Notes: a model not told the origin generated them from the sequence alone. Numbered from the stretch's first letter, positions 2,613 to 30,735 are shown. The stretch: DNA of 32,000 bases from Nitrosomonas europaea (GCF_900167395.1 NZ_FUWK01000009.1:30001-62000), one strand, 5' to 3'. A program made the numbers and translations.

Positions 2613-2641
2613 TTGCTGTACGGGGTGATTTCAGTGATAAT
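2613..2641 (+). promoter_or_regulatory. candidate sigma-70 promoter for tRNA-Leu
   Basis: TTGCTG (2613-2618), a 17-nt spacer, then GATAAT (2636-2641). The -10 element ends 23 nt upstream of the mature tRNA 5' end. Pattern match only. Confidence 0.35.
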
Positions 2642-2664
2642 TGCGTTCCTGCCGCAACTTGAAA

Positions 2665-2751
2665 GCCGGGATGGCGGAATTGGTAGACGCACGGGACTCA
2701 AAATCCCGCGATGGTGACATCATGGGGGTTCGATTCCCCCTCCCGGCACCA
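2665..2751 (+). tRNA. tRNA-Leu (anticodon CAA), type II with long variable arm, CCA encoded
   Basis: Hand-folded cloverleaf. Acceptor GCCGGGA/TCCCGGC; anticodon stem CGGGA/TCCCG with loop CTCAAAA (CAA); variable arm GATG-GTGA-CATC; T arm GGGGG-TTCGATT-CCCCC; discriminator A followed by CCA. Confidence 0.95.
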
Positions 2752-3112
2752 CAAAGAATATTTTAAGCTCCGCTTTACTTCATCAAATTCAAGGCAGTCC
2801 GACAATCTGCTGGAAGTCAACTGGTAAGAAAACGGAGCGAAGACTTGTTAGCTTCCTGTTTGTTACTCTTCTGTACTTATCTAACCGAATGGTGCCGGTT
2901 TGGTGGTGCTGGTGTCAGCAGTAAAAAATGCACTTGGAGCGTATACAGGTACTGATAAACTTTGCTACTTGGACAATGCTGATTTCTGGTGCTTCTTCGG
3001 GCGGCACTCCATTTATATGATCTTTCCGAATCATAATCCAGGTATCTTGTGTCGGGTTGGATCATCCGGGTGCCCCGGGAAGCTCATCATTGATAATTGA
3101 TCAGGAGGACGA

Positions 3113-4745: not shown

Positions 4746-5480
4746 TCAGGGAGCGAGCAGCGTGCTGATCGTATCGGTTTCGATCAGTGTAATGCCGGCT
4801 TCTGCATAACCGAGTGCCGTAGCGTAATCATCGACTGTATAAATCACCCATTGCCAGGGACCGGGCCAGAGTTGATCGAGTTTTTCGGGAAGACAGCGGA
4901 TGCTGCTGAACAGATAATCCGGCTGCAAGCGTGCTGCCATGGCCGATTGTTCGTCAGTCCAGTGTTCGATGATCCAGCCGGTTTTGTACATCTGATGCGA
5001 TTTGATCAGTGCAATCAATTCCCAGTCGAATGAAATCAGGACACATTGTGTGTGCACCACATCAATGACCGGAAGAATTGCATCCATCGTTTTGCTCAGA
5101 CCAAACCGGGCAATGCTTTCAGATTTGATTTCGACGAAGGTGGTGACTTGGGGATGCTGCGCCAGATAGCGGCAGAATTCTGCCAGACGGGGAATTGGAG
5201 CAGGCTCTGTACCGGATGAACACGTGACATCTGGGCAGGAGACGGTCAGTGTATCGATTTCATCGTCTTTCAGTCTGGTCAGATAGGCATTGCGGCCGGT
5301 CAATCGCTTCAGATTATCGTCATGACAGAGATAGGGAGTCAGCTGGCGGCTCAGTTGAATGTCAATTTCAACATACCGGGCACCAGCCTGGACTGCAGCC
5401 CGAATTCCGACCAGTGAATTTTCCGGATACAATGCGGGATACCCTCGATGGGCAACGAAACAAGGAACACCATGCACCAT
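4746..5480 (-). CDS. glycerophosphodiester phosphodiesterase family protein (GDPD; cytoplasmic UgpQ-like, 244 aa)
   Basis: Shows the GDPD signature (HRGYPALYPENSLVGIRAAVQAGARYVEIDIQLS). No signal peptide. Probably forms an operon with the GlpD-like gene. Confidence 0.85.
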   Translation of the reverse strand: MVHGVPCFVAHRGYPALYPENSLVGIRAAVQAGARYVEIDIQLSRQLTPYLCHDDNLKRLTGRNAYLTRLKDDEIDTLTVSCPDVTCSSGTEPAPIPRLAEFCRYLAQHPQVTTFVEIKSESIARFGLSKTMDAILPVIDVVHTQCVLISFDWELIALIKSHQMYKTGWIIEHWTDEQSAMAARLQPDYLFSSIRCLPEKLDQLWPGPWQWVIYTVDDYATALGYAEAGITLIETDTISTLLAP

Positions 5481-5590
5481 TACAGAAGAACCACTCCTCT
5501 TTTTCCTCGAGTCTACTCTCTATTCCATTGGATTGCGATGTTATCCGGTAATGGAAGGACCGTTCAGGAGCCGTTCAGTTTGAAGGGGGT

Positions 5591-6250
5591 ATGATGTATA
5601 AAAGAGATACTCGTTTCAGTATGGTGTTTCCGGCGTTGCTCGCGGTGGTTTTGTTTGTTCCGTTTGTGATGAATTTTCTGGCACATGCGTGGTATGGAGA
5701 GAAACATTTTCCACCACTGACGATGATGAAACTGCCGGCTGACAGTTCGGTCATCAGCCTGCCGCAAGAAATAAAACAATACAAACCTTTTGAAATCACA
5801 TTGCAACTGAATACCAGAGAACTGGCGCGGCGTATCAACGATATCGTCAAGAAATCTCATCCCGGAACCGAGCTGCAAGGTATTCGCAGCGAGGTTTTCC
5901 CTGAAATGCGTGCCAGGATAGCCGGAGATGCATTTTCGATCGATCCACCGGAGCCGCAGGTGCAGTTCTTTTCCGGTCAAGGTGAGATGAGCCGGTGGTC
6001 CTGGATCATTACTCCAGAAAAGACGGGGCGTCACCACCTGTTGATCGAGCTGCATCTGCAAACGGCTGAAACCACCCGTGAGCATCCGCAAGTTGCGGAT
6101 CTGGCTGAAATTCAGTTGTTTGTACGAGAAAACCCAGAAGCATGGATGCGGACTCATGGTATCTGGTATGCGCTCTTTACTCTGCTGGCAGCAGGGTGGT
6201 GGTGGAAAAAACGTCTAATAAAAAAACGAAAAGCAGCCAAAGAGCAGTAA
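5591..6250 (+). CDS. hypothetical exported protein with a C-terminal TM anchor and a basic tail (219 aa)
   Basis: SD GAAGGGGG lies directly upstream of the ATG at 5591. The N-terminus is signal-peptide-like with an AHA-W site (MMYKRDTRFSMVFPALLAVVLFVPFVMNFLAHA). The soluble domain is about 150 aa. The C-terminus is ENPEAWMRTHGIWYALFTLLAAGWWWKKRLIKKRKAAKEQ. The gene ends 41 nt before czcC. No family recognised. Confidence 0.7.
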   Translation: MMYKRDTRFSMVFPALLAVVLFVPFVMNFLAHAWYGEKHFPPLTMMKLPADSSVISLPQEIKQYKPFEITLQLNTRELARRINDIVKKSHPGTELQGIRSEVFPEMRARIAGDAFSIDPPEPQVQFFSGQGEMSRWSWIITPEKTGRHHLLIELHLQTAETTREHPQVADLAEIQLFVRENPEAWMRTHGIWYALFTLLAAGWWWKKRLIKKRKAAKEQ

Positions 6251-6291
6251 CTGCTCGCTTTATAAAAATACAGCTTTTATCTTCATTTTGT

Positions 6292-7548
6292 ATGCGGAAA
6301 ATTTTTCTCTGGAGTTTCCTGTCTGGCTTCGCTTTATTTACGGGATCAAATTATCCGGTTCTGGCGGCGGGAGGCGGATATACCGTCACTGATATTCAGC
6401 GTATGGGTTTACAGGCCAATGGCTTGCTGCAGGCTGTCCGTTCACAGGTCGAGATAGCCAGGGCAGAGGTTACCAGTGCATCGGCATTTCCCAACCCTGA
6501 AGTTACTTTTATGGCTGGCCCTGACAGTAAGCGTTTACCTGAGATTGATACCGGGCCGGCTTCCATGCAACGGCAGGTGACAGTCAGTCAGTCACTGGAA
6601 AATCCATTTGTGCGGCGTGCCCGGATCGGTGCGGCAGAGGCCGGGGTGGAAGCCAGTCGCGCAAATCTGGAACAGGCACGGGCAGATCTGGCGGCGCAAC
6701 TTCGGGTACATATCTATGAATTTCTGTTGCGACGTGGTCTGGCTGAGATGGAATCAGATATTCATGATCTGATGGGGGAAATACAGCGTCGTATCAAGCT
6801 GAGCGTTGAATCGGGTGAAACTGCCCGCTTCGAGTTGATTCGTGCCGATACCGAAGTAATGACGGCAGCGAGCAGAAAAGAGGCAGCATTATTGAATACC
6901 GAACGGGCACGTATTGCTCTGTTGCAATTGACAGCAGGCGCCTTGCCACCTGAATTCAACGTGACTGCTTCGCTCGGTGATCCGGTCGAATTGCCTTCAC
7001 TTGAAGCGTTACGTGTTGAGTTATCAACTGTGAATCCGGAAATTCTGCGTTTGGAGGCAGAGCAGAATCGCGCACATCTGCGAATCGACCAGGAGCGTGC
7101 TTCTGTACTGCCGTCAGTGAATATTCTTTACAGCAATTACCAGGACAAGCAATTTACATCGAATACCGCTGGATTGAGCGTACGGATTCCACTTTTCTAT
7201 CAGCGGCGCGGTGAAGTCGATGCAGCGGTTTCAGATGCAGCCAGAGTGCGCGAGACGCTCGATTATCGTCGCTATGAGATCAATCGACTGCTGGAATCCG
7301 CCTGGCAGGCGATGGAGATTGCGCGGCGCAGAGTGGAAATGTTTGAAGGCGGTATCGTCAAGGAAGCAGAAGCGGCGCTGCGTGTGGCGGAAGCTGCTTT
7401 CCGGCTGGGGGAAAGAGGGTTTATCGAGGTGCTGGATACCCAGCGGGTGTTGCGTAATGCCCGTTCGGAGCTGTTGCAGGCCCAGTTCGAATTACAGTCA
7501 GCAGCGGCAGAGATAGATCGGCTGCGAGCGCATTATCCAAAGGAGTAA
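6292..7548 (+). CDS. czcC: TolC-like outer-membrane efflux protein, CzcC family (418 aa)
   Basis: The ORF track begins at 6142, but the ATG at 6292 yields a signal peptide (MRKIFLWSFLSGFALFTGSNYPVLAAG). The body is a two-repeat alpha-helical/beta-barrel OMF-type sequence. It sits first in a C-B-A operon. The symbol is a family-level assignment only. Confidence 0.85.
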   Translation: MRKIFLWSFLSGFALFTGSNYPVLAAGGGYTVTDIQRMGLQANGLLQAVRSQVEIARAEVTSASAFPNPEVTFMAGPDSKRLPEIDTGPASMQRQVTVSQSLENPFVRRARIGAAEAGVEASRANLEQARADLAAQLRVHIYEFLLRRGLAEMESDIHDLMGEIQRRIKLSVESGETARFELIRADTEVMTAASRKEAALLNTERARIALLQLTAGALPPEFNVTASLGDPVELPSLEALRVELSTVNPEILRLEAEQNRAHLRIDQERASVLPSVNILYSNYQDKQFTSNTAGLSVRIPLFYQRRGEVDAAVSDAARVRETLDYRRYEINRLLESAWQAMEIARRRVEMFEGGIVKEAEAALRVAEAAFRLGERGFIEVLDTQRVLRNARSELLQAQFELQSAAAEIDRLRAHYPKE

Positions 7549-7557
7549 CCTTTTTCA

Positions 7558-8721
7558 ATGAATTTGCAGATACAGATCATTGCTGTTTTTCTTGCATTCG
7601 TCACACTGTCTGTTCCGGGTTGCAAGAGCGGAGAGGAACAGGAGCCTCCGGAAAAACACGTCAAGGCAGAAACAGATGATGCCAATACAATTTTTCTCAG
7701 GCCGGATTTACGCGAACGGATCAAAACCGGCAAGCCCTTTTATGCCGATATTGCTGAAAAACTGAGCGTCCCCGGGCAGATCAAGGTCAACGAATTGAAG
7801 CTCGTTCAGGTCGGGGCGAGCTTTACCGGGCGGATCGTCGAAATTTATGCACATTTGGGGGATAGTGTTTCCGCCGGTACCAAACTGGCCAGGATTTCAA
7901 GCCCGGAACTGACCCAGGCTCAACTGGCTTATCTGCGTGCCAATTCTCTGGCAGTACTGGCACAGCGTGCAGCCATGCGCGCACAGCAATTGTTTGAGGA
8001 GGATGTCATCAGTGCTGCAGAGCTGCAGCGCCGGGAATCGGAATTACAGGTTTCAAACGCTGAACTGAGTGCGGCGAAGGATCATTTGCGGTTGCTGGGA
8101 ATGGATAACCAGGCAGTGCAGGATCTGACCAAACGTGGCCAGATCCTGCCTTCCGTGGTCATTACCGCACCGCGCAGCGGTACGGTAATTGCACGCGATG
8201 TTGCGCTGGGACAGGTGGTTCAGCCTTCGGATCAGCTATTTACACTGGCTGATTTGTCGGTGCTGTGGGTGGTGGGGGATGTCCCGGAGCATGCTGCCCA
8301 TTTTGTCGAGCTGGGTCAGCATGTGGAAGTGCGCGTACCTGCATTGGGGGACACGAGTTTCGATGGAACCATCATTTTTGTATCCGACATCGTCAATCCG
8401 CTGACACGAACGGTAACTGTCCGCACGGAAGTGGATAATCCTGAACGCAGGTTACGTCCGGATATGCTGACCACAGTGAATATCGATGAACACGCGCGTG
8501 AGCGTCTGGTCATCCCGGAAGGGGCGGTGGTACGTGAGAATAATGAGGATCATGTGTTCATTGCCCGGGAAGATGGCGGTTTCACACTGACTCCGGTCAA
8601 ACTGGATGAAATGATCAATCAGGTAAGACCCGTCCTGGAAGGGTTGACACCGGATCAGCAGATCATCGTCGATGGTGCCTTTCACCTGAATAACGAGCGC
8701 AAGCGCAAGGATCTGGAGTAA
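7558..8721 (+). CDS. czcB: efflux RND periplasmic adaptor (membrane-fusion protein, HlyD/CzcB family, 387 aa)
   Basis: AAGGAG lies 12 nt upstream of the ATG. The N-terminus is lipoprotein-like (LSVPGC). It has biotinyl-lipoyl-like and coiled-coil hairpin regions (ISSPELTQAQLAYLRA...). Its stop overlaps the czcA start (TAATG). Confidence 0.9.
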   Translation: MNLQIQIIAVFLAFVTLSVPGCKSGEEQEPPEKHVKAETDDANTIFLRPDLRERIKTGKPFYADIAEKLSVPGQIKVNELKLVQVGASFTGRIVEIYAHLGDSVSAGTKLARISSPELTQAQLAYLRANSLAVLAQRAAMRAQQLFEEDVISAAELQRRESELQVSNAELSAAKDHLRLLGMDNQAVQDLTKRGQILPSVVITAPRSGTVIARDVALGQVVQPSDQLFTLADLSVLWVVGDVPEHAAHFVELGQHVEVRVPALGDTSFDGTIIFVSDIVNPLTRTVTVRTEVDNPERRLRPDMLTTVNIDEHARERLVIPEGAVVRENNEDHVFIAREDGGFTLTPVKLDEMINQVRPVLEGLTPDQQIIVDGAFHLNNERKRKDLE

Positions 8722-11700
8722 TGATGATTACTTCTCTGGTACGCGCCATGCTGGCGCAGCGGCTGGTGATAGTCGTGCTGACGCTGATTCTGATGGGGTT
8801 TGGTCTGCATGCAGCACAACGCTTGTCAGTCGATGCGTTTCCGGATGTCACCAATATTCAGGTGCAGATTGCGACTGAGGCAGTCGGTCGCAGTCCGGAA
8901 GAGATAGAACGGCTGGTGACGGTTCCACTGGAAATTGCCATGACCGGATTGCCCGGACTGGAGGAAATGCGTTCACTGAACAAGAGCGGTTTATCCATCA
9001 TTACCCTGGTTTTTACCGATGAAACCGATGTTTATTTTGCCCGGCAACTGGTCATGGAGCGGCTGCTGGAAGCAGCCAGTAAAATGCCACCGGGAATTAT
9101 CCCGCGCCTGGGTCCGGTTTCTACGGGCCTGGGAGAGGTTTATCAATACACGATCGATCATCCCAATGATGGTGAGCGGGCACTGACCGTCGAAGAACTG
9201 ACCGAACGGCGCATCGTGCAGGACTGGATTGTCCGGCCAATGTTGCGATCCATTCCCGGAGTGGCGGAAATCAATTCGCAGGGAGGGTATGTCAAGCAAT
9301 ATCATGTGCTGACGGATCCCAACAAACTGCGTCACTACGATCTGACACTGAACCAGGTAGAGAAGGCCGTTGCAGAAAATAATGCCAATGCCAGCGGCGG
9401 TATCCTGCCGACCGGCAGTGAACAGTATCTCGTTCGAGGGGTTGGCCTGATTCGCACCCTGCAGGATATTGGCAATATCGTCCTGTCGGAAGAGCGCGGT
9501 GTGCCTGTATTCGTGCGTGACATCGCTGAAGTGAAACTGGGCACGGAGGTCAGGGCAGGGGCCGTCATCAAGGGTGGGTATACCGAATCGGCTTCCGGCA
9601 TCGTGCTGATGGTCAGAGGCGGGAACGCCAAGGAAATCGTGGAGCGCGTCAAGGTAAAGGTGGCGGAGATCAATGAGCAGAAACTGCTGCCCGGCGGATT
9701 ACAGATCGTTCCGTATTATGACCGTACCGACCTGGTCGATGCCGCATTGTGGACGGTCAGCAAGGTACTGATGGAAGGTATTTTTCTGGTCATCGTCGTG
9801 TTGTTCATCTTTCTGGGGGATGTGCGCTCGAGCCTGATCGTGGTGGCAACACTGGTAGTTACGCCCTTACTGACATTCATGATAATGAATCACCAGGGTA
9901 TCTCCGCCAATCTGATGTCACTGGGCGGGCTTGCGATCGCGATCGGGCTGATGGTCGATTCCACCGTGGTGGTGGTGGAAAATGTCTTTCATCGCCTGGG
10001 CCATAGTGGCAACACGCAGGAATCACGTGCGCGTACCATTATTGAGGCGGTGGGTGAGGTCGGTACACCGGTGATTTTTGGGATTTGCATCATCATTCTG
10101 GTGTTTCTGCCACTGATGACGTTACAGGGTATGGAGGGCAAGTTGTTCAGTCCGCTGGCCTTTACGATTGCGATTGCTTTGGCGATTTCCCTGATCGTCT
10201 CGCTGACTTTGTCCCCGGTATTGTGTGCCTATATCCTGAAAGGGGGGGCCGATCACGATACGACGATCATTGCCAAACTGAAAGCGGCTTACCATTCCTT
10301 GCTCAACACTGCACTCAAGCGGGGAAAACTGACAGTTACCACTGCGCTGGGATTATTGCTGCTGTCTTTTGTGTTGTTTCCATTTCTGGGGAAATCGTTT
10401 ATTCCAACTTTGAAAGAAGGTGCATTGACTCCCCAGATCAACCGGGTAGCCTCGATTTCCCTGTCCGAAGCCATTGAAATGGAAATGGAAGCCATGAAGG
10501 CCGTATCGAAGGTGCCAGGGGTGAAAAGTGTGGTATCCAAACTGGGGCGCGGTGAATCTCCTGCTGACCCGGCCGGGCAGAATGAATCCGATCCGATCGT
10601 GATACTCGATCCGGAGTCCGGTCGTACCCAGGATGAAGTGGATGAAGATATCCGCAAATTGCTGGAGGTGCTGCCAGGCGTCAATATCGTTTTGTCACAA
10701 CCGATTGCCGAAAGAGTGGATGAGATGGTGACTGGTGTACGCTCTGAAATTGCAGTAAAAATTTTCGGGGACGATCTGAATAAATTGCGTGAGCTGTCGG
10801 AACAGATCGCACGCATTTTACGCAGCATTCCGGGTGCACAGGATATTCGTATAGAACGTCTGTCCGGCCAGCAATCCCTCACCATCGATGTTGATCGTAA
10901 TGCCATTGCGCGTAACGGTATCAATGTCGCTGATGTGCATGAACTGATCGAGACTGCTGTCGGCGGTCGTGAAGTCAGTACTTTGTACGAAGGTGAGCGG
11001 CGTTTTTCCATCGTGGCACGTTTTCCACAACATTTTCGTGACAGTATCGAAAGCATTCGCAATTTGCTGCTGCGGGCCCCGGATGGCGTAACCGTGCCCT
11101 TATATACTGTTGCTAACATTAACATCGTCGATGGTCCCGCCCAGGTTTCACGTGAAAATGCCAAGCGTCGCGTAGTAGTCGGATCGAATGTCGAAGGCCG
11201 TGATCTGGGCGGGTTTGTAGCAGAGGTACAGGAGCGGATTGCCAAAGAAGTGAAACTGCCTGACGGTTATTTCTTCGAGTGGGGGGGGCAGTTCGAGAAT
11301 ATGGAGCGTGCTATGGCTACGCTTTCGATCATTGTCCCGATAACGATTTTTGCGATTTTCTTTTTACTGTTCATGTTGTTCAATTCCCTCAGATTGGCTG
11401 CTTTGATCATTCTGGTGCTGCCATTTGCATCGATAGGGGGTGTATTTGGCCTGTTTGTCACCGGTGAATATCTATCGGTGCCTGCCTCGGTTGGTTTTAT
11501 CGCATTGTGGGGAATTGCGGTATTGAACGGAGTGGTGCTGATTTCCTATATTCGCAAATTGCGTGATGAGGGGGTCAGCGTGAAGGATGCCGTCATTAAA
11601 GGATGCGAGCAGCGCTTCCGCCCGGTCTTGATGACCGCTACGGTAGCCATGCTCGGGCTGGTTCCGTTTCTGTTCGCGACCGGCCCGGGCTCAGAAGTGC

Positions 11701-20463: not shown

Positions 20464-21378
20464 ATGTACCCCTTACTTGCAAGATTCTTCTCATCGCACC
20501 AGCAGGCGCTGGGTGTTCTGTTTGCCTTGCTGTCGGCGATTGGTTTTTCCGCCAAGGCGATTTTCATCAAACTGGCCTATGTCGAGCCTGTGGATGCCGT
20601 AACTTTGCTGGCCTTGCGCATGGTGTTTTCCGTGCCATTTTTCGTATTTGCCATGCTGCACGGACGGGCGCAGGCCACACCCATGGCCCGGCACGACTGG
20701 CTCGCTGTCCTGCTGCTGGGGCTGGTGGGTTACTATCTGGCAAGTTTTCTTGATTTTCTCGGTCTGCAATACATCAGCGCGGGGCTGGAGCGCATGATTC
20801 TGTTTCTGTATCCCACCATGGTGGTGCTTATCAGTGCGCTGGTATTTCGCGCGGCTATCGGGCGCAGGGTCTGGTTCGCCTTGCTGCTCAGTTATGTTGG
20901 TATCGGGCTGGTGTTCGTGCATGATTTCCACATCACATCGGATGGTCTGTTCATGGGGAGTAGCCTCGTTTTTGCCAGCGCACTGGCTTATGCCATCTAC
21001 TTGATTGGTGCCGGACACACCATCGCCCGTATCGGCTCCATGCGCTTTACCGCTTATGCCATGACCGTCGCCTGTCTGGCCTGCATCGCCCAATTCCTGC
21101 TCACTCATCCGCTGGATGACTTGCAGCAATCCACCCGTGTCTATGGCCTCAGCATTGGTATGGCGCTGTTCTCCACCGTGATGCCTGCCTTTGCCCTTGC
21201 CGCTGCTATGCGACGAATCGGCTCCATGCAAACCTCCATGATAGGTGCACTGGGGCCGGTGGCGACCATTTACCTGGCTTACGTGTTTCTCGCGGAACAA
21301 CTGTCGCTGACACAGCTGGCAGGCTCGGGGCTGGTGTTGATTGGTGTGATGATGATCAGTATGCGGAAGATGGAATAA
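20464..21378 (+). CDS. DMT-superfamily transporter, EamA family (about 304 aa)
   Basis: About ten hydrophobic helices arranged as two EamA-like halves. The track ORF starts at a GTG at 20413; the ATG at 20464 (MYPLLARFF...) is a more conservative start. Neither has a good SD. Confidence 0.8.
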   Translation: MYPLLARFFSSHQQALGVLFALLSAIGFSAKAIFIKLAYVEPVDAVTLLALRMVFSVPFFVFAMLHGRAQATPMARHDWLAVLLLGLVGYYLASFLDFLGLQYISAGLERMILFLYPTMVVLISALVFRAAIGRRVWFALLLSYVGIGLVFVHDFHITSDGLFMGSSLVFASALAYAIYLIGAGHTIARIGSMRFTAYAMTVACLACIAQFLLTHPLDDLQQSTRVYGLSIGMALFSTVMPAFALAAAMRRIGSMQTSMIGALGPVATIYLAYVFLAEQLSLTQLAGSGLVLIGVMMISMRKME

Positions 21379-21509
21379 TGGAGTGGCTCTGGGAAACCTG
21401 AACTTGAGCAGAGTGTACACTTAGTAATGATGGCATCCAGGTTATAGAAGCCCATTGCCCGTAAACCATTCACTGATGGTGTGCCTACCTACCTCGAACA
21501 ACTTGGTCA

Positions 21510-24500
21510 TCACTTCGACCATGAATTCGACAACACTTCCGCTTGCTGTAGCACCAATTCCACTGCCTCCAGCTGCTTGTCGGGCGGGTACTTCCATTTC
21601 TGCAAGGTGCGCCGCACCAGAATCCGCAGCTTGGCGCGAACACTCTCACGCACCTGCCAATCCACCGTGGTGCTGTTGCGCAGTTTTTCGGTAATCTCGA
21701 CGGCGATTTTCTTGAGGGTGTCGTCTCCCAGCTCCCGCACGGCGCTTTCGTTGTTGGCCAGTGCATCATAGAAAGCAATTTCATCGGGATTCAGCCCCAG
21801 CGCGGCTTCGCGTTCAAGCGCCGCCTGGAAGTCCTTCGCCATCTGGATCAGTTCCTCGATGATCTGCGCCGTCTCCACCGCCCGGTTGTGGTATTTGCGC
21901 AGGGTTTCCAGCAGGCGGTCGCCGTACTTCTTCTCCTGCACCACGTTGTTGCGTGCGCGCGCCTTGATTTCGTCGCTCAGCAGTTTTTCCAGAAGCTCTA
22001 CCGCCAGGTTGCGGTTCTTCATCTGTCGCACATCTTCCAGGAATTCTTCCGACAACAGCCCGATGTTGGGCTTGTCCAGACCCGCCAGCGCGAAGATATC
22101 CGCCACCCCGTCAGCGACGATGGCGTTGTCCAGAATCTGCTTGAGCGCGCTGTTCTTATCTGCGTCGGAACGCTTGCGGTCCACCGTGGTGAACTTGACG
22201 ATGGCGGCCTTGACGGCGGCGAAGAAGGCAATCTCCGTACGCAAGGCAGCAGTTTCATCCAACGTGCTGCACAGGGAAAATGCCTTGCTCACGGCCAGCA
22301 TGGCATCGAGGAAGCGCTGCTTGCCGTCCTTCAGCCCCAGGATATGGTTGGCTACCGGCACCAGCAGCTTCATTGCATCGGTCTCGAACCCGCGGTAGTC
22401 GAAGCCGTGCATCAGCCCACGCACGATGTCCAGCTTCTCCAGCAGGACTGCCAGAGCTTCGGCCGCGTTGTGCGTCGGGTCGCCCTTGCCCTTGGATTCG
22501 GTGTAGGTCTTGAGCGCCGCCTTCAGCTCGTTGGCGATGCCGATGTAATCCACCACCAGCCCGCCGGGCTTGTTGCGGAATACCCGGTTGACGCGGGCAA
22601 TAGCTTGCATCAGGTTGTGGCCCTTCATGGGCTTGTCCACATACATCGTGTGGCAGCAGGGCGCGTCGAAGCCGGTCAGCCACATATCGCGCACGATCAC
22701 CAGCTTCAACGGGTCCGCCGGGTCCTTGAAGCGCTTTTCCAGGAGTTTTTTGACCTGCTGGCTGTACAGGTGAGGCTGCAGCAAGGGCTTGTCCGCTGCC
22801 GAGCCGGTCATCACTACCTTGATTGCGCCCTTCTCCGGGTCGGCATCGTGCCAGTCCGGGCGCAGGGCGACGGTGGCGTTGTACAGCTCGGCGCAAATGT
22901 CCCGGCTCATGCACACGATCATCACCTTGCCTTCCAGAGTGGCTGTGCGCGTCTCGAAGTGCTGCACCAGGTCGGCAGCCACCTGTTCCAGACGCGGCTG
23001 CGCGCCGACTAGCTTGGTCAGCGCAGCCCAATCGCTCTTGGTCTTCTCGCGGGCGGTGATGTCTTCCTCGTCCTCGATGACCTCATCTACCTGGGCATTG
23101 AGTGCGTCGATCTCGGCCTGGTTCACGTCCAGCTTGGCTAGGCGGCTTTCGTAGAAGATCGGTACCGTGGCGCCATCGTCCACCGCGTCCTGAATGTCGT
23201 AGATGCTGACGTAATCGCCGAACACCGCCCGCGTGTCTTTGTCTTCCAGGGCGATGGGGGTGCCGGTGAAGCCGATGAAGGTGGCGTTGGCCAGCGCGTC
23301 GCGCATGTGCTTGGCGTAGCCAAATACGTACTTGCCGGTCTTGGTATCCAGTCGCCCTTTCATGCCGTACTGGCTGCGGTGCGCCTCGTCGGAAATCACC
23401 ACGATATTGCTGCGATCCGACAGCAGCGGGTGCTGTTCTTCGTCGTCCAGCAAGGCGAACTTCTGCACCGTGGTGAAGATGATGCCGCCCGCCTCACGCG
23501 AAGCCAGTATTTCGCGCAGCTCCTCGCGGCTGCCGGCCTGCACTGGCGTTTGACGGAGCAAGTCTTCGGCGGCGCAAAAGGTGGCGAACAACTGCCCGTC
23601 CAGATCGTTGCGATCGGTCACCACCACCAGGGTGGGGTTCTTCATCTCCGGCTGCTGCAACAGCTTGCCCGCGTAGCAGGCCATAGTGATGCTCTTGCCC
23701 GAGCCTTGCGTATGCCACACCACGCCAGCCTTGCGGCTGCCGGGCTGCACTTCCTTACCATAGGTGGCGCGCGGCTCCTGCACTTCCAACAAACCTTTGT
23801 TCGGGTTGCTGGCGGCGATCACCGTGGCTTTCACCGCCTCGCGCACCGCATGGAACTGGTGATAGCCCGCGATCTTCTTGATGATCTGATCGGCATCCTG
23901 CTCGAACAGAACGAAGTGGCGCACATAGTCGAGAAACAGCGCCGGCTCGAAGAAGCCACGCACCAGCGTTTCCAGCTCGAATTCCAGCAGCGGCCGGTCG
24001 TCCTCGTTGGCAATCGCCCGCCAGGGCTGCATGCGCTCCTGATTGGCCGTGAGCGAACCCAACCGCGCCGTGAAGCCATCGCTGACCACCACCGCCACGT
24101 TGGTGTTGAACAGGTCGCCAATCTCTTCCTTGTAGGTCTGTATCTGGTTCAAGGCATCCCAGATGTCGGTCTGCTCGTTGGCCGGGTTCTTCAGCTCGAT
24201 CACCACCAGCGGCAGGCCGTTGACGAAGGCCACCAGATCGGGGCGGCGCGGCTGGCGGGTAGCCCGGACGGTGAACTGGCTGACCAGCAGGAAGTCGTTG
24301 TTGCGCGGGTTGGCAAAGTCGATCAGGTTGACCAGATCGCTGCGCTTTTCATCACCCACGGAAAACTCTACGGGGATACCGGACAGCAGCAGCCGATGCA
24401 CACGGCGATTGCGGGCAATCAACAACGGCTCGCCCACCGTCAACAACTCGTGCGCGGCCTGCTCCAGCGCGGCGGCGGGGATGTGCGGGTTGATGCGTGC

Positions 24501-24659
24501 CAGTGCGGCCAGCAGGTGTTCTCGCAGCACCACTTGGCGGTAGTCGGTGCGGGCGGGCTGGTCGCCATCGGGGGCGATCTCCGGGCCGTTGGCATGCGGC
24601 CAGCCCAGCTCGGCAAACCAGCCAACGGCTGTATCTTCCAGTTTTTGTTCGGTGATCAT
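21510..24659 (-). CDS. hsdR: type I restriction endonuclease subunit R (HsdR, 1049 aa)
   Basis: SF2 helicase motifs are present: Walker A (HTQGSGKSITM), DEAH box (VISDEAHRSQYG) and motif VI-like (QAIARVNRV). It also has an N-terminal nuclease-type region and a C-terminal helical domain. Its ATG overlaps the stop of the upstream gene (ATGA at 24656-24659). Confidence 0.95.
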   Translation of the reverse strand: MITEQKLEDTAVGWFAELGWPHANGPEIAPDGDQPARTDYRQVVLREHLLAALARINPHIPAAALEQAAHELLTVGEPLLIARNRRVHRLLLSGIPVEFSVGDEKRSDLVNLIDFANPRNNDFLLVSQFTVRATRQPRRPDLVAFVNGLPLVVIELKNPANEQTDIWDALNQIQTYKEEIGDLFNTNVAVVVSDGFTARLGSLTANQERMQPWRAIANEDDRPLLEFELETLVRGFFEPALFLDYVRHFVLFEQDADQIIKKIAGYHQFHAVREAVKATVIAASNPNKGLLEVQEPRATYGKEVQPGSRKAGVVWHTQGSGKSITMACYAGKLLQQPEMKNPTLVVVTDRNDLDGQLFATFCAAEDLLRQTPVQAGSREELREILASREAGGIIFTTVQKFALLDDEEQHPLLSDRSNIVVISDEAHRSQYGMKGRLDTKTGKYVFGYAKHMRDALANATFIGFTGTPIALEDKDTRAVFGDYVSIYDIQDAVDDGATVPIFYESRLAKLDVNQAEIDALNAQVDEVIEDEEDITAREKTKSDWAALTKLVGAQPRLEQVAADLVQHFETRTATLEGKVMIVCMSRDICAELYNATVALRPDWHDADPEKGAIKVVMTGSAADKPLLQPHLYSQQVKKLLEKRFKDPADPLKLVIVRDMWLTGFDAPCCHTMYVDKPMKGHNLMQAIARVNRVFRNKPGGLVVDYIGIANELKAALKTYTESKGKGDPTHNAAEALAVLLEKLDIVRGLMHGFDYRGFETDAMKLLVPVANHILGLKDGKQRFLDAMLAVSKAFSLCSTLDETAALRTEIAFFAAVKAAIVKFTTVDRKRSDADKNSALKQILDNAIVADGVADIFALAGLDKPNIGLLSEEFLEDVRQMKNRNLAVELLEKLLSDEIKARARNNVVQEKKYGDRLLETLRKYHNRAVETAQIIEELIQMAKDFQAALEREAALGLNPDEIAFYDALANNESAVRELGDDTLKKIAVEITEKLRNSTTVDWQVRESVRAKLRILVRRTLQKWKYPPDKQLEAVELVLQQAEVLSNSWSK

Positions 24660-26149
24660 TCCCCCACCTCCCAGTGACCGCCCTTGTTGGGGCCGATGCG
24701 GCGCAAGCGTTTTTGCGCCTTGAGTTTGGCCAGCTGCTTTTCAATCGCTCGGGGCGTGAGTTGCAGACGCCGGGCCAGTGCCGAGGCGGTCAGCGAAGGC
24801 TCTTCGCGCAGCAGATGAAGGATCTTTTTGCCCGTTTCTTCCGAACTTTCTTCCGAACTTTCTTCCGAACTTTCGGAAGCCAAAGTCGCCCCCCGCCCCT
24901 TCGCCCAGAACATCTCCAGCACCGAATGCTCGTGCGGCTCATAGGATTCGCGCAGATGCAATTCGTGGCCCAGGTCACGCCAGCCATGCACGATGCGGGA
25001 CATGCCCGAACCCGCACGCTCGCCCAGGCCAATCATCAGGAACATTTGCTGCATGGTGCGGTTGCGGCAGTCGCTCATGCCGCCTTGCAACGCCTGCTGC
25101 GCAGGCACCCGCAAGCCGCCGGGGTTGCGCAGCACAAAGCCCGCGGGCTCCTTGACCACCAGCACGGAGATGCGGCCCGTGTAGTCCGCATGCACCAGCG
25201 TGTTCACCAACGCCTCGCGCAGCGCCTTGTGCGTGGGCGTATCGTCCTGGCGAATATCGCCCTTGAGCACGAACGGCACCTTGATGTCGGCCGTCAGCTT
25301 GCCCACGACGCGGCGGTAGAAGTCGAACACATTGCCTGACCACGTGCCGTCGGGCACGATGCGATCCAGCCATTGCACCGTCGTGGCATAGTCTGCCGGG
25401 CGCTCCTGATAGTCCAGAAAGCACAGCGGCACGGCCTCGGTGATCGACGACCACTGCCCGAACATCAGCAGGCCCGCCAGCGTCAGCCCGGCTTCGCCTG
25501 TCTCGCGGTGTTGCCGCCAGCCACCGATCTGCCGCAAGAACGCCTGATCTGCCAGCGCATTCCACGGGTGGGAGGGGTCGCGATTGGCAAACAGTTGACG
25601 GTACGCGCGCAGGCTTTCCAGGTGCAGGTCATCCAGGCCGTAGCCGGGCAGGATGCGCTCATCCCGGCTGTCTTCCACCTGCTCGGCCAGCATGCGTTTG
25701 ACGTCTTCGTCCGGCAAGGGCCGGTCACCCTCATGCAGACGGCGGTAGGTATGGCCGCCCAACGGATTGCCCCTCAGGTACACGGGCCGCTGCTGACGCC
25801 GCGCTCGCGGAATCTCCACCACCAGCAGCGTCTTGCCCTCTACCGGCCAGGCCCGCACATCCTCATCCCGCAGCAGATTGACGCTGACCTTCTGGCGGTT
25901 GTTCAGGTGGTTGAACAACTCGGTGCGCAGCTTGTCCGGGTTTTCAATGCCCGCCACTTCGAACTGCCCCTTGCGCTCACGCACGCCCAGAATCACGATG
26001 CCGCCATCGGTATTGGCCATCGCGCTGTAGGTGGGCCAGAAATCATCCGGCAACGCACCCTTGCCATCCCGGCCCTGGGCGAGCTTGCACTCCAGCGAGA
26101 CGGATTCACGCAGCAGGGAAAGATCGTCCAGCGCGGTAAATTCGATCAT
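24656..26149 (-). CDS. AlbA_2 (Schlafen-like) / HATPase_c_4 / winged-helix protein of the COG2865 type, embedded in the R-M operon; function unknown (497 aa)
   Basis: The N-terminus reads as an AlbA_2 signature (ESVSLECK...FWPTYSAMANTDGGIVILGVRERKGQFEVAGI). The middle and C-terminal region reads as an HATPase_c_4 / RecG-C-terminal-like module (REALVNTLVHADYTGRISVLVV...LRNPGGL...CRNRTMQQMFLMIGLGERAGSGMSRI). This is followed by a SEES-repeat linker and a C-terminal wHTH (ILHLLREEPSLTASALARRLQLTPRAIEKQLAKLKAQKRLRRIG). Both ends have ATGA start/stop overlaps, with hsdS and with hsdR. Confidence 0.85.
   Translation of the reverse strand: MIEFTALDDLSLLRESVSLECKLAQGRDGKGALPDDFWPTYSAMANTDGGIVILGVRERKGQFEVAGIENPDKLRTELFNHLNNRQKVSVNLLRDEDVRAWPVEGKTLLVVEIPRARRQQRPVYLRGNPLGGHTYRRLHEGDRPLPDEDVKRMLAEQVEDSRDERILPGYGLDDLHLESLRAYRQLFANRDPSHPWNALADQAFLRQIGGWRQHRETGEAGLTLAGLLMFGQWSSITEAVPLCFLDYQERPADYATTVQWLDRIVPDGTWSGNVFDFYRRVVGKLTADIKVPFVLKGDIRQDDTPTHKALREALVNTLVHADYTGRISVLVVKEPAGFVLRNPGGLRVPAQQALQGGMSDCRNRTMQQMFLMIGLGERAGSGMSRIVHGWRDLGHELHLRESYEPHEHSVLEMFWAKGRGATLASESSEESSEESSEETGKKILHLLREEPSLTASALARRLQLTPRAIEKQLAKLKAQKRLRRIGPNKGGHWEVGE
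24835..24874. repeat. in-frame 12-bp tandem repeat (tttcttccgaac x3 plus a partial unit) encoding (SSEE)3 in the linker of gene X
   Basis: Three perfect units at 24835-24846, 24847-24858 and 24859-24870, then a partial tttc. The last unit forms an 8-bp inverted repeat with the following sequence (cttccgaa-ct-ttcggaag, 24862-24879). Confidence 0.9.
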
Positions 26150-27486
26150 GCGGTCGCCGCCTCGGCAGAGGTGTTGTCGACGGACAGCTCGCCGGAGAGG
26201 AGTTTTGGGAGGAGGGTGTCGCGGAGTTCGGCCAGCGATTGCCCTGTCGTTTCGTTTGCTTGCATTGTCTTCCTAATCTGCGCAACCAGCCCATCGAAAG
26301 CATTCAAAACCGGCGTGGATGGTTTAACCAACTCCAGTCGGTACACGTTCTCCCGATTCAAGCCGGGAACGGCAGCATCGGTATTCATTTTGTTCAACCC
26401 AAGTGTTTGCATGGCATAGAAGCAGTACGTCATCGGCACAGCTTTTGGTTTGACGTAAAAGGTTGTGTCGATCGGGTAAAACGGATCGTCTTCCCAGTAC
26501 AAACTGCCAACTGTTCCTTTGCGGCCAACAATGATCGCTCCATGCGGTACCAATGCTTCATTGTGGCAGCCGGTGATGCCGCCAGAACCGTAAACAGGAA
26601 CAGCGCCTTCTTGGCGGTCGGTTGATTTGAGAGCTTTGCCGTATGCCAATTCAATCAAATCACCGACGCGCTTTACTTGCCACCCCTTCGGAATCGCCCC
26701 CAACTCCGACTCTTGCATGGTATCGGGGAACAGGGCGGCGGTGGCGGCGAGTTGGTCGTGGTGCTCGCGGGGCATCTGGTCGAGCTCAAGGTCGGTCTTG
26801 CCGCTGATGGCGCGCATGGCGGCGCGCAGCGGGTCTTGGCCTTGTTCGATGGCGGCGATCCTGGCCTTGACCGGGTCGAAATCGACAAACCAGGATTTGA
26901 AGACGGCTTGCGCCATGGCTTCGAGGGTTTGGTTGATGCGGCGATTCGCGCGAATCTTGACATCAAGTGCCTTGATGTTTCGCACGACAACTTGCTGCTC
27001 TTCGATTGAGGGAACGGGAACTTCGATTGTTTTCAGGTATGACGAGGGACGTGCGATTGATGGCACACCAACCTGGTTAGCGTTGGCAAGAAGTTTGTGC
27101 TGCCCTTCAGGACTTTTGAAATAATAGACAACAAACTCCGGAAGAATAATGCTGGTATCACAGCGTAAATAGAACTGCCGCTGCGAGATAACATATCTCT
27201 GATATTTTGAATGATTCGGAATAAACGCCACCTGCCCAATATTTCCAGCATGGGTAAAAATCACATCCCCCCTTTGAACATTGGCATTTTTAAGAGAGTC
27301 AGCGTGTTCTTCCGTAATGAAATTGAACTCACTATCTGTTAGTTCTGCATCACGCAGGTGCTGCCCACTTATTATGGGAATACCCGTATCTGTGAATGTT
27401 TCAACTTTAATTGATGAGCCAAACGGCCCCATTGCAACCTTCAGGGCAATTTCTTCAACTCGTTTGTAGGGCCACTTACCAGCCAT
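26146..27486 (-). CDS. hsdS: type I R-M specificity subunit (HsdS, about 446 aa from the ATG at 27486)
   Basis: Two target-recognition domains are separated by a conserved helical spacer ([21 protein letters not shown]...[18 protein letters not shown]) and followed by a C-terminal conserved helix ([17 protein letters not shown]). The ATG at 27486 overlaps the hsdM stop by 11 nt. The track start at 27534 is a GTG lying inside hsdM. Confidence 0.92.
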
Positions 27487-29191
27487 AGCCCAACCCCGCC
27501 AAATTCTTCCTGATCTCCGTCTCCAGCCTCGCACTCTCCGCGAACTGTTCCGCCAGTTGCGCGGTCAGGCGCTGCATCTTGTCGGCAAAAGGTTCTCCGT
27601 CTTCTTCCTGCTCAGCCGTGCCCACATAGCGCCCCGGTGTTAGCACATGCTCATGCTTGCGCACTTCCTCCAGTGAGGCGGATTTGCAGAAGCCGGGGAC
27701 ATCCTCGTACCCATCGCCCTGCTGCCAGGCATGGAAGGTGTCGGCGATTTTCTGGATGTCGTCCACTGTGAAATCGCGCAGCACGCGATCCTTCATATAG
27801 CCCATCTGACGGGCGTCGATGAACAGAAATTCGCCGCGCCGGTCGCGCTTCTTCTTGTCCAGCGCAAAGCCGTTCTGCTTGTCGCGGGTCAGGAACCAGA
27901 TGCAGGCCGGAATCTGGGTGTTGGTGAACAACTGGCCGGGCAGCGCGACCATGCACTCCACGTAGTCGTCCTCGGTCAGCCGCTTGCGGATTTCACCTTC
28001 GCTGTTGGTGTTGCTGCTCATGGAGCCGTTGGCCAGCAGCAGTGCCATGCTGCCGGTGGGCGCCAGGTGCCAGAGCATGTGCTGCAACCAGGCGAAGTTG
28101 GCGTTGCCTTGCGGTGGTGTACCGGCGATCCAGCGCGGGTCGTTGGCCAGCTTTTCGTTCCACCATTCCTTCATGTTGAAGGGCGGGTTGGCCATCACGA
28201 AGTCGGCGCGCAGGTCCGGGTGCAGGTCGTTGAGCAGGGTGTCGGCCGGGCCGCTGCCGAAGTTGAAGTCGATTCCACGGATAGCCATGTTCATCGCAGC
28301 CAGCCGCCAGGTGGTGGGGTTGCTTTCCTGCCCGTAAACGCTGATCTGCCCACTCTTGCCGTTGGCCGCTTTGCCGCCGTGCTGTCCGATGAACTCCTCG
28401 CTCTGCACGAAGAAACCGCCGGAGCCCATGGCCGGGTCATACACGCGGCCCTTGAAGGGCTGGAGCATTTCAACGATCAGGGTGACGATGCTCTTGGGCG
28501 TGTAGTACTGCCCGCCCTTCTTGCCTTCGGCCAGGGCGAACTGGCCGAGGAAGTATTCGTAGACGTGGCCGAGGATGTCCCTGGATTGCAGGCTGAGCGG
28601 CTGGCCCTTGTAGGTCTTGGCCGCGAAGTCGGTATCAGAGAACAGGGCGATGAGTTCGCCCAGCTTGCTGGAGTCGAGCTGCACGCGGGCGAAGTCCTTG
28701 TTTAGCACGTTCTTCAGCCGGATATTCTCCCGTTCGATAGCTTCCATGGCGTTGTCGATCAGCCAGCCGACCGAACGCATTTCCTCGGGTTCGTCCTTGC
28801 CGGGTTTGTTCCAGGGCAGCGCCGCCTTGGGTGGCAGTTGCGCGCAATCGCGCAGGGTTTGCCAGCGGGCTTCCACAGGGACCCAGAACACGTTCTTCTC
28901 AGTGTAGTAGTCGCGGACTTCGAGCTCGGCGGCGATGTTGTCCTCATACTCCGGCGTGCCCGCGCCGCCGTATTCTTCCGGATCCATGTAGTAGTCGTGC
29001 TGAGGGTTGGTGAACTGTTCGCGCAGTTCCCGCTGCCGCTCCTCGAAGGCATCGGATACATACTTGAGGAAGATCAGCCCGAGCACGACATGCTTGTACA
29101 CGGCGGCGTCGAGGTTGGAGCGCAGCTTGTCGGCGGCGGTCCAGAGCTTCTTTTCCAGATCGTTGAAGAACTGTTGTTCTATGGGTTTCAT
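27476..29191 (-). CDS. hsdM: type I R-M N6-adenine DNA methyltransferase subunit (HsdM, 571 aa)
   Basis: Has the HsdM N-terminal domain ([35 protein letters not shown]), SAM motif I ([13 protein letters not shown]) and catalytic motif IV (MANPPFN). No canonical SD precedes the ATG. Confidence 0.95.
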
Positions 29192-29352
29192 ATCAGGAGA
29201 ATGATGAATTTATGCAGTTTGAATGAGGCGGTGGCTATCATTAACCTTATCACATGAGCCTGATTTCATATTTTTCTTTATGCCAGTAATTTTCCTGCTT
29301 CTTATCCGATTGATCCGGATTCGAGGCACTTCGATACCGCCAGGAAGGCTTG

Positions 29353-30735
29353 TTATTTTCCGATGCAGAAACTGGAAAAAATCTCGCCCAGCAGATCATC
29401 GCTGGTAAATTCACCGGTGATGGAGGATAGGGCTTGTTGCGCGAGGCGTAATTCTTCGGCCAGTATTTCCAGCTGATCTGCACGATGCAGCCAGGCGGCT
29501 GCTCTTTCCAGCAGTTCTTTTGCCTGTATCAATGCTTGCAGATGGCGCTGGCGAGCCATGTAGGCGCCTTCTCCGGCAATGTTGGCCTGCCAGCCGGCAG
29601 TTTTGAGCAGTGCAGCCCGTAGCAGTTCTATTCCTTCCCCATTTATGGCTGAAAGGTAAATGGTTGGCCCGGATGTGTTTTCTTCCAGGCGAGGAGGCTG
29701 AGCTGACAGATCGATTTTGTTGTGGACGGTCAGTACCGGCAACCGTTCCGGCAGGCGCGTCAGCACTGAGCGATCTTCTTCTGTTACACCGTGGCGGCTG
29801 TCCACCAGTAACAATACCAGATCAGCCTGTTCGATTGCGGCGTAGGTGCGGGCAATTCCGTGTTGCTCAACAATGTCGCTGGTTTCTCTCAGCCCTGCGG
29901 TATCAATCAGATGCAGTGGAATTCCTTCGATTTCGATCGATTGCCGGACAGTGTCTCTTGTCGTACCAGGAATATCAGTGACAATGGCAACCTCGTCTCC
30001 GGCAAGACGGTTGAGCAGGCTGGATTTGCCTACGTTGGGCTGACCAGCCAGTACGACTTTGATACCTTCCTGCAGCAGATTGCCCTGGCGAGATGCAACC
30101 AGTACCTGTTCCAGTTTGGCTCGGATCGTCGCCAGTTGTTCTGCGGCATGGGCTGACTGGAGAAAGTCGATTTCTTCTTCCGGAAAATCGAGTGTTGCTT
30201 CGACCAGTACACGCAGATCGATTAGTGCACTGACGAGCTGGTGAATCGTTGATGAGAATTCTCCGTGCAACGAGCGTACTGCACAGCGCGCGGCATTGGC
30301 AGTGCTGGCTGCGATCAGATCTGCGACGCCTTCGGCCTGTGCGAGATCGAGTTTATCGTTGAGGAAGGCCCGTAGTGTAAATTCACCCGGTTCCGCCAGG
30401 CGGGCACCCAGTTGAAGGCAGCGATCCAGTAGCAGATTCATGACGGCGGGGCCGCCATGCCCTTGCAGTTCCAGCACCTCTTCGCCGGTGTAGGAATGGG
30501 GAGAAGGAAAGTAAAGTGCGATTCCCTGATCGATGATCTGACTATTCTGATCAAGGAAGCTGAATAACCCGGCATGACGCGGATCAGGAAGCTTGCCCAG
30601 GATTCCCCGGGCAAGCGATTCCAGATTTGTTCCGGAAATCCGGACTATACCTATGCCGCCACGACCGGGGGGCGTGGCAATTGCTGCGATGGTGTCATTA
30701 CTTGTCACCAGAGAGGGCAGGGCTTTTTGATCCAA
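29353..30735 (-). CDS. mnmE: tRNA uridine-5-carboxymethylaminomethyl(34) synthesis GTPase MnmE
   Basis: Motifs seen: [23 protein letters not shown]1 ([12 protein letters not shown]), G3 (DTAGLR), G4 (NKIDL) and the C-terminal FCIGK. There is no ATG near the N-terminus. The track start at 30735 is a TTG. A GVG at 30708 giving (M)[14 protein letters not shown] would match the E. coli N-terminal spacing better. Confidence 0.93.

Follow-up and report, generated by a model that had tools for sequence, protein, structure and literature searches.

A Schlafen-ATPase gene between hsdS and hsdR of a type I restriction-modification operon in Nitrosomonas europaea: candidate exchangeable defence cargo

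Introduction

Prokaryotic Schlafens that carry an Ex4(E/D)xK motif defend bacteria against phages through tRNA cleavage that is triggered by the phage (Perez Taboada et al., Nat Microbiol 2026, PMC13056530). Here we analyse a stretch of 32,000 nucleotides from Nitrosomonas europaea (GCF_900167395.1, NZ_FUWK01000009.1:30001-62000), referred to as the window. Within it, a gene that we call X lies between hsdS and hsdR of a type I restriction-modification (R-M) operon and encodes a protein with a Schlafen (AlbA_2) domain, a GHKL ATPase domain and a winged helix-turn-helix (wHTH). An earlier note on this DNA had proposed that X is a defence effector guarded by the R-M system.

In PMC13056530, the commonest architectures of prokaryotic Schlafens (pSlfn) are HisKinase (34%) and HisKinase-HTH (19.2%). 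X resembles the HisKinase-HTH class in its architecture, its Ex4(E/D)xK motif and the association with defence islands. The members proven there differ from X because they are Ig-like (RorSlfn5) and DUF262 (EcoSlfn7) fusions, and in its accessible part the report gives no description of pSlfn embedded in type I R-M operons.

The pair formed by a SLFN domain and PF13749 has been named ‘Schlatpase’ (Kuzmenko et al., bioRxiv 10.64898/2026.05.29.728809). In RzAgo, a Schlafen fused to a prokaryotic Argonaute (SLFN-pAgo), ATP binding by the PF13749 GHKL domain leads to a tetramer in which single-lobe Schlafens pair into an active tRNase, and residues E314 and N318 coordinate the gamma-phosphate and Mg. 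According to that study, the majority of Schlatpases are small, and a C-terminal HTH may be present or absent. It also describes R-M operons of Poribacteria that carry a stand-alone or HsdS-fused Schlatpase. Schlatpase modules fused to R-M methyltransferases have been reported as well (bioRxiv 10.64898/2026.05.29.728809; PMC13462974). X has the same Schlafen and GHKL core as RzAgo, with the conserved Glu/Asn N-box, and its Schlafen domain is single-lobe and would need pairing. Unlike RzAgo, X has only a linker and a wHTH as its extra module and no Argonaute sensor, so its trigger must differ.

Genes with a Slfn-minimal histidine kinase (HK)-wHTH architecture are found inside bacteriophage exclusion (BREX) loci in at least 1017 taxa and have been interpreted as back-up suicidal effectors (PMC12839542). 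The Cash paper finds Slfn-ATPase-DNA-binding clusters ‘tightly associated’ with three kinds of system (BREX, R-M and type I CRISPR), and speculates that the R-M-linked proteins sense DNA-cleavage products, by analogy with the activation of SLFN11 by single-stranded DNA (PMC13462974). X shares with these genes (PMC12839542; PMC13462974, Fig. 6) the architecture, the nesting in a methylation-based defence operon and the reading as a suicidal RNase held in reserve. What has been published on them comes from comparative genomics only. The host of X is a type I R-M system with a precise, coupled hsdS-X-hsdR arrangement.

The precedent for an R-M-guarded nuclease is PrrC; the related RloC senses double-strand breaks (PMC12707154). 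Payne et al. have established ‘guilt by embedding’ in type I R-M systems, with PrrC as the near-exclusive embedded example (bioRxiv 10.1101/2024.01.29.577857). X occupies the operon slot of PrrC in EcoprrI (type IC, hsdM-hsdS-prrC-hsdR), as the earlier note had seen, and a predicted tRNA cleavage together with an ATP/NTP-binding regulatory domain would give it a similar logic. The folds are unrelated: PrrC combines an ABC-ATPase with an anticodon nuclease, and X a Schlafen domain with a GHKL domain. Moreover, PrrC is nearly always embedded in R-M loci and masked by the complex, whereas relatives of X often stand alone.

Papers from 2026 have thus described the class to which X belongs, the role predicted for it and the link of such proteins to R-M and BREX loci, and the present locus is a clean new example. 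The earlier note had held that COG2865-type proteins have no demonstrated function; this is out of date for the Schlafen-ATPase module but still true for the exact stand-alone architecture.

Results

X combines Schlafen, GHKL and winged-helix domains with conserved motifs

The features of the locus are collected in Table 1. In a Pfam scan, SLFN_AlbA_2 (PF04326) matched X residues 16-144 with 39.8 bits against a cut-off of 25.3 bits (E 7e-10), and several winged-helix families matched residues 438-478. HATPase_c_4 (PF13749) matched residues 340-395 with 24.7 bits, slightly below its cut-off of 26 bits; homologues of X at 56-89% identity clear the cut-off with 28-32 bits and carry a precomputed PF13749 match. 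The domain order that the earlier note had read from motifs (AlbA_2, HATPase_c_4, linker, wHTH) is borne out by Pfam, by the homologues and by Foldseek.

A profile search against the PDB matched the Schlafen domain of X to 2kyy, a ‘RecG-related’ N-domain (E 8e-12), and residues 309-475 to 3lmm. Both entries come from structural genomics and are about 20% identical to X; 3lmm is DIP2311 of Corynebacterium diphtheriae. An AlphaFold2 model of X was built from 29 sequences. With this model as the query, Foldseek returned DIP2311 (3lmm) as the best whole-chain match (E 6e-19), the histidine-kinase catalytic domains of CpxA, CusS and PhoQ, the N-domain of SLFN13 (5yd0, prob 0.87) and the winged helices of ZitR/MarR and Zalpha. 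The wHTH is modelled as three helices and a beta hairpin.

We assessed conservation in an alignment of X with 28 homologues (A1) and in a second set of 80 sequences, which includes 79 genome-derived relatives at 47-87% identity. The predicted catalytic residues E15, E20 and K22 are invariant in A1 and kept in 78-79 of the 80 sequences. In the GHKL domain, which has the Bergerat fold, E312, N316, N342-P-G344 and G376-E-x-A-G-x-G382 are invariant in A1. Taken together, the catalytic and GHKL residues (E15, E20, K22, E312, N316, G344, G376, G380 and G382) are kept in 78-80 of the 80 sequences. E312 and N316 correspond by motif to E314 and N318 of RzAgo. As the PADLOC SLFN-pAgo model PDLC02394 aligns with X residues 41-347 (E 8e-8), X is homologous to the Schlafen-ATPase module of the SLFN-Argonautes.

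A search of NCBIfam gave only a weak HTH match. Homology to PrrC, RloC or ABC-ATPases was not found in X with Pfam, PADLOC or NCBIfam. The identity of a ‘RecG-like helicase’ was considered for X and rejected, the Pfam scan being free of any helicase domain.

The identical X protein was found in 82 contig blocks. Separately, one Logan contig of 46.5 kb (P0017) holds a 391-residue allele that matches X without a difference as far as residue 343 (RNP), after which it runs out of frame. The break lies at a C/G run in ‘aaccccggcgg’, at about window position 25120, and the ATP-lid boxes and the wHTH would be lost. This allele reflects either a true inactivating frameshift or an assembly error.

Table 1. 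Features of the hsdM-hsdS-X-hsdR locus, in window coordinates
Feature	Position	Strand	Evidence
X, Schlafen(AlbA_2)-GHKL ATPase-wHTH protein, 497 residues, ATG start	24656..26149	-	Open reading frame list, sequence, Pfam, homologues, structure model, Foldseek
Predicted catalytic motif E15-x4-E20-x-K22 (ESVSLECK) of X	26084..26107	-	Conserved in alignments; motif definition Ex4(E/D)xK from PMC13056530
Schlafen/AlbA_2 nuclease domain of X, residues 16-144	25718..26104	-	Pfam PF04326, PDB 2kyy, Foldseek 5yd0
GHKL (HATPase_c_4) ATP-binding domain of X, residues ~305-395: N-box E312/N316, NPG 342-344, G2 box G376-G382	24965..25237	-	
Perfect tandem repeat, 12 nucleotides x 3.3, coding the Ser/Glu linker (SEES...) between GHKL and wHTH of X	24835..24874	-	Tandem Repeats Finder (TRF)
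C-terminal wHTH of X, residues ~439-497	24659..24834	-	Pfam HTH_11, HTH_24; model; Foldseek
hsdM, type I R-M methyltransferase subunit, 571 residues	27476..29191	-	Pfam HsdM_N + N6_Mtase E 5e-110; PADLOC MTase_I E 9e-184
hsdS, specificity subunit, 446 residues from ATG at 27486	26146..27486	-	Pfam Methylase_S, two stretches; PADLOC Specificity_I E 2e-112
hsdR, restriction/translocase subunit, 1049 residues	21510..24659	-	Pfam HSDR_N, SWI2_SNF2, T1R_D3-like, T1RH-like_C; TIGR00348 E 2e-181
AT-rich spacer, 161 nucleotides, mnmE stop to hsdM start; left junction of the GC-rich R-M insertion	29192..29352	-	

X is coupled to hsdS and hsdR

The start codon of X shares an ATGA with the TGA of hsdS at 26146-26149 (the sequence reads ‘...gcgaccgcATGAtcgaa’), and its TGA shares another with the ATG of hsdR at 24656-24659 (‘...gtgggggaATGAtcacc’). 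Both overlaps, which the earlier note had reported together with the reading frame of X, are seen in the list of open reading frames and in the sequence itself. The note's overlap of 11 nucleotides between hsdM and hsdS also holds, provided that hsdS begins at the ATG at 27486, the hsdM stop ending at 27476. This start agrees with independent gene calls on identical contigs (8664 versus 8674 in locus L081), and the alignment of the PADLOC specificity-subunit model begins at residue 17 of the longer, GTG-initiated hsdS reading frame. The four genes had further been taken for a single coupled polycistron. The overlaps support the coupling; a consensus scan for promoters and terminators inside the operon gave no excess over the shuffled expectation, a result that is compatible with one transcript without proving it.

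The type I set is full-length: it comprises hsdM, hsdS with two target-recognition domains, and hsdR with nuclease, superfamily 2 (SF2) motor and C-terminal domains. The nearest solved structure to the window HsdR is that of EcoR124I.

Relatives of X are often embedded in type I operons

When one genome per species was scanned, at least 575 relatives of X were found; the results on neighbourhoods refer to the best 80 loci of these, which were searched with the window HsdM, HsdS and HsdR. The order hsdS..X..hsdR was found in 22 of the 43 loci that could be read on both sides. Some type I R-M gene lay nearby in 27 of these 43, and none in the other 16. A same-strand hsdR followed within three genes in 31 of the 58 loci with at least 2 kb downstream. 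Across all informative loci the count is 46 linked to R-M versus 16 not, a ratio that is biased upward, as short contigs can score positive only. The junctions recur too: the stop of X and the start of hsdR are most often -4 nucleotides (8 loci) or -11 nucleotides (4 loci) apart, and the 4-nucleotide overlap between hsdS and X is found in at least eight loci (L001, L009, L014, L018, L026, L027, L029 and L048). Embedded loci come from Comamonadaceae, Rhodocyclaceae, Desulfobulbus, Halomonas, Undibacterium, Shewanella, Burkholderia, Verrucomicrobia, Lentisphaerae, Riflebacteria and Methylococcales. On Pseudoalteromonas plasmids annotated with PGAP, the order is M, S, ‘RNA-binding domain-containing protein’, R.

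By these counts, about half to two thirds of the close relatives of X are embedded in type I R-M operons. With thousands of genes and about one type I system per genome, this rate of adjacency is far beyond chance; the loci are, however, not independent events. The earlier note had pointed to the neighbourhoods of homologues as a check on its reading, and in this respect its expectation is borne out.

Seventeen loci without R-M genes hold integrases, IS66, YhcG/DUF1016, DUF3375 and HipA beside ordinary housekeeping genes. A Pfam scan of 87 neighbouring proteins revealed no hidden type I family of another kind in the R-M-negative loci among the top families shown. Stand-alone copies of X lie on Burkholderia and Pantoea plasmids and in islands with integrases and insertion sequences (transposons). 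In similarity clustering, embedded and non-embedded copies are intermixed, so that embedding has been gained or lost more than once.

Distant homologues of X, at 28-37% identity, also occur in Streptococcus satellite phages of the Javan series (MK448556, MK448414, MK448442, MK448661 and others). They lie at positions of about 1400-3000, near one end of the element, and are annotated as ‘ATP-dependent DNA helicase’ or hypothetical. Their placement fits defence cargo carried on phage satellites.

X and other genes are exchanged in the hsdS-hsdR slot

Among 23 operons, the identities of HsdR and HsdM co-vary tightly (rho 0.90). For X and HsdR the correlation is weak (rho 0.29, Mantel p 0.003). 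A single locus makes the same point: the R-M backbones of Snodgrassella L018 and of the window share about 89% nucleotide identity, X is only 75% identical over its first 1250 nucleotides, and the L018 protein ends in a different C-terminal part of about 270 residues.

The slot is also open to other genes. One gene-caller reading frame lies between hsdS and X in 17 loci. In five of them (L005 6654-7946, L008 6719-7990, L012 6724-7989, L063 5441-6682 and L072 1358-2587) it is an FRG protein that ends in a T1RH-like_C segment. The other larger same-strand frames at this position encode a SIR2_2 protein (three loci), a reverse transcriptase (RVT_1), an AAA_15/AAA_21 ATP-binding cassette (ABC) ATPase and unknown proteins; the SIR2_2, reverse transcriptase and ABC ATPase genes lie at L028 3300-4433, L062 6815-7978, L064 6724-7977, L054 2054-3637 and L067 1430-3022. 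Because the slot holds a SIR2_2 protein, a reverse transcriptase or an ABC ATPase elsewhere, the gap between hsdS and hsdR behaves as a miniature defence island.

The C-terminus of the FRG cargo matches the extreme C-terminal region of the window HsdR (42% identity over 45 residues, E 3e-9). This shared segment may be a docking motif that lets cargo plug into the R-M complex. No similarity to it was found in the C-terminus of X, in the short or the long form of the protein. The C-terminus of the window HsdR also matches the PADLOC candidate PDC-S15.

Two loci deserve separate mention. A metagenome-assembled Pseudomonas genome (L053) has two different Schlatpase genes flanking hsdS, at 4943-6346 and 7998-10019; the copy in the hsdM-hsdS gap is canonical, with strong Pfam scores and a wHTH, and the copy after hsdS is of the long form. 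In L082 (6723-14849), which is from the same species as the window, the X protein is identical and the DNA matches window 21301-29400 with 97% nucleotide identity from the centre of hsdS through hsdR. For hsdM the identity falls to 90%, and hsdS has a different first target-recognition domain in place of that of the window. The comparison indicates that alleles of the operon's 5' half have been exchanged within the population.

Because co-variation with HsdR is weak, because relatives of X stand alone and because other genes occupy the same slot, X is, judged from these comparisons, swappable defence cargo rather than a core R-M subunit.

These data bear on whether X is controlled like PrrC. 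In such a scheme HsdM2S (or M2SR2) would hold X inactive through contact, and the disabling of this complex by an anti-restriction protein (Ocr, ArdA or Stp-like) would free X as a tRNase. X does sit in the prrC slot, translationally coupled on both sides, and 22 of the 43 relatives with usable flanks have the same order. Moreover, PrrC itself provides the precedent (PMC12707154), published Schlatpase modules include fusions with HsdS or with R-M methyltransferases (bioRxiv 10.64898/2026.05.29.728809; PMC13462974), and a need for a partner would lead one to expect the lack of defence that was found for lone Slfn-HisKinase genes (PMC13056530). However, 16 of the 43 relatives lie in unrelated islands with no R-M neighbour, whereas PrrC is almost exclusively R-M-embedded (bioRxiv 10.1101/2024.01.29.577857), and the architecture of X is embedded in BREX as well (PMC12839542). 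Furthermore, X co-varies weakly with HsdR, its alleles have been swapped on one backbone in L018, it has no homology to PrrC, and its sequence is without the C-terminal motif common to HsdR and the FRG cargo. We therefore consider a PrrC-like guard unlikely. The evidence leans away from the suggestion of the earlier note that X could be ‘wired to the R-M complex’.

The linker and the C-terminal part of X vary

The earlier note had described an acidic Ser/Glu repeat linker, and we find it encoded by the perfect tandem repeat listed in Table 1. At this position (A1 columns ~440-500) each homologue has a different short peptide repeat (SPESS, SVQSS, VNDG, SPKSS, ETP and others). This pattern suggests recurrent in-frame slippage and a tether of variable length. 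The mean pairwise identity is 63-72% for the enzymatic domains, 47% for the wHTH and 29% for the linker. Thus, the putative sensor-like part of X is its variable part, the linker being the least conserved segment and the wHTH the least conserved folded domain. Relatives of X come in two forms, one of about 500 residues with the wHTH, to which the window protein belongs, and one of about 660 residues, the C-terminus of which gave weak Fic-like_C matches only.

It is conceivable that this variable part reads the products of restriction. The wHTH and linker would then detect DNA structures that arise from translocation or cutting by HsdR (ends, single-stranded DNA or stalled complexes) and switch on the RNase, so that a hit by the R-M system is amplified into translational shutdown. 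The C-terminus of X has a nucleic-acid-binding fold, and the gene lies directly upstream of hsdR and is coupled to it. Sensing of cleavage products has been speculated on (PMC13462974), and RloC offers a case of double-strand break sensing (PMC12707154). Nevertheless, stand-alone copies of X have no adjacent nuclease, and long-form relatives swap the wHTH for a different C-terminal region and yet keep the slot. We regard this restriction-coupled sensing as distinctly improbable.

A wHTH of the MarR/ArsR/AsnC type could also mean that X is a DNA-binding regulator of the operon (a controller or BrxR-like protein) or a ‘RecG-like’ nucleic-acid accessory with no toxic effector role. Annotations in the sources read ‘predicted HTH transcriptional regulator’ or ‘RecG’. 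However, 78-80 of 80 homologues keep the residues of the nuclease and ATPase motifs, which a mere repressor would not need, and the wHTH is the domain that is least conserved among the folded ones and is replaced in the long forms. R-M controller (C) proteins are about 80-100 residues long and have a C-box, whereas X has 497 residues in three domains. In addition, no conserved operator or promoter sequence upstream of hsdM is common to the eight M-S-X-R operons that we compared, and the Pfam scan gave X no helicase domain. A purely regulatory or accessory role is therefore highly improbable, and the regulator that the earlier note had offered as its less exciting alternative finds no support in the upstream sequences or in the conserved enzymatic motifs.

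The R-M block in the window

The GC content is 61-65% in hsdR, X and hsdM (about 62% for the block), about 52-57% over the target-recognition domains of hsdS (R-M block at window 21400-29200) and 48-53% in the flanks; the host stands at about 51%. X thus shares the GC-rich composition of the R-M genes, as the earlier note had said. Because the block is GC-rich relative to the host and its nearest relatives are in Comamonadaceae, its composition and affinities point to a recent transfer from a high-GC betaproteobacterium.

The operon lies directly after yidC-mnmE. The remaining genes of the window are housekeeping genes, including spoT, a resistance-nodulation-division (RND) efflux pump, an ABC exporter and a histidine kinase, and no integrase was seen in the window. 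The same R-M backbone is found just downstream of the 3' end of mnmE in three genera, namely the window host, an uncultured Comamonas (L001 2619-4122) and Snodgrassella (L018 1601-4833). SGI1-type islands also use this site. A related operon was not found in complete E. coli genomes, which gave only matches of about 71% to hsdR.

Discussion

We propose that X, which travels in the hsdS-hsdR slot as exchangeable cargo, is a Schlafen tRNase that stays latent and is regulated by ATP, and that it may provide a second layer of defence when restriction fails. We give this reading about an even chance of being right. It builds on what was observed of X: its gene structure, its domains, the conservation of its motifs, the embedding statistics and its modular exchange. 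For the RNase activity, the ATP-driven activation, the trigger and the defence phenotype we draw on characterised Schlafens. The part of the earlier note that made X a defence effector stands as the best reading, given the conserved motifs, the embedding in R-M loci and the known Schlafen tRNases (PMC13056530; PMC13462974; bioRxiv 10.64898/2026.05.29.728809); for the part that tied it to the R-M complex, the evidence leans the other way.

The first part of our model concerns how X would be made and held in check. Through the ATGA overlaps on both sides, X would be translated together with the R-M subunits and would remain latent in uninfected cells. Embedding would bring co-transfer and co-expression with the R-M system, and would not entail obligatory physical control by the R-M complex.

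The second part explains how X could be activated. An infection cue, either a nucleic acid or a phage protein, may be read by the variable C-terminal part of X. The cue, together with ATP binding to the GHKL domain, would cause X to oligomerise, and oligomerisation would pair the single-lobe Schlafen domains into an active tRNase. Cleavage of tRNA would then arrest translation, and this arrest may act as an abortive or growth-arrest layer against phages that get past restriction.

Several points weigh against this proposal. In PMC13056530, E. coli cells that expressed Slfn-HisKinase genes on their own were not protected from the phage panel, so that an autonomous defence role of the X architecture is a putative one; HisKinase-HTH fusions lay outside the set assayed. 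The model of X is of moderate confidence, with a mean predicted local distance difference test (pLDDT) of 74, and the Foldseek match to SLFN13 is weak (E 7.5e-3). A dedicated family for X is absent from PADLOC v2 and NCBIfam, and PADLOC matched SLFN-pAgo/Aga models only. Finally, the frequent and exact embedding between hsdS and hsdR, with overlapping starts and stops, could reflect a functional dependence on R-M that our proposal does not require.

Such a dependence would mean that the type I R-M system itself gates the RNase, which would be either kept latent via HsdM and HsdS until an anti-restriction strike or switched on by DNA structures that HsdR makes. We entertain this gating only tentatively and think it rather unlikely. 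If true, it would explain why lone Slfn-HisKinase genes gave no defence, and X would be the first Schlafen with a demonstrated coupling to R-M, the logic of prr having been re-invented convergently from an unrelated fold.

Slfn-GHKL-HTH is the most abundant prokaryotic form of Schlafen, yet it is without a demonstrated phenotype. The locus described here is a compact, translationally coupled M-S-X-R unit of four genes, and it has close natural variants in which the same backbone carries a different X allele or the same X accompanies a different hsdS. It is therefore a convenient place to ask whether RNases of this kind act alone or read out the state of the neighbouring restriction system. Should gating by R-M prove true, the ‘guard of restriction’ principle would extend beyond PrrC and PARIS, and it would be linked to a Schlafen lineage that is common with the human antiviral proteins SLFN11/13.

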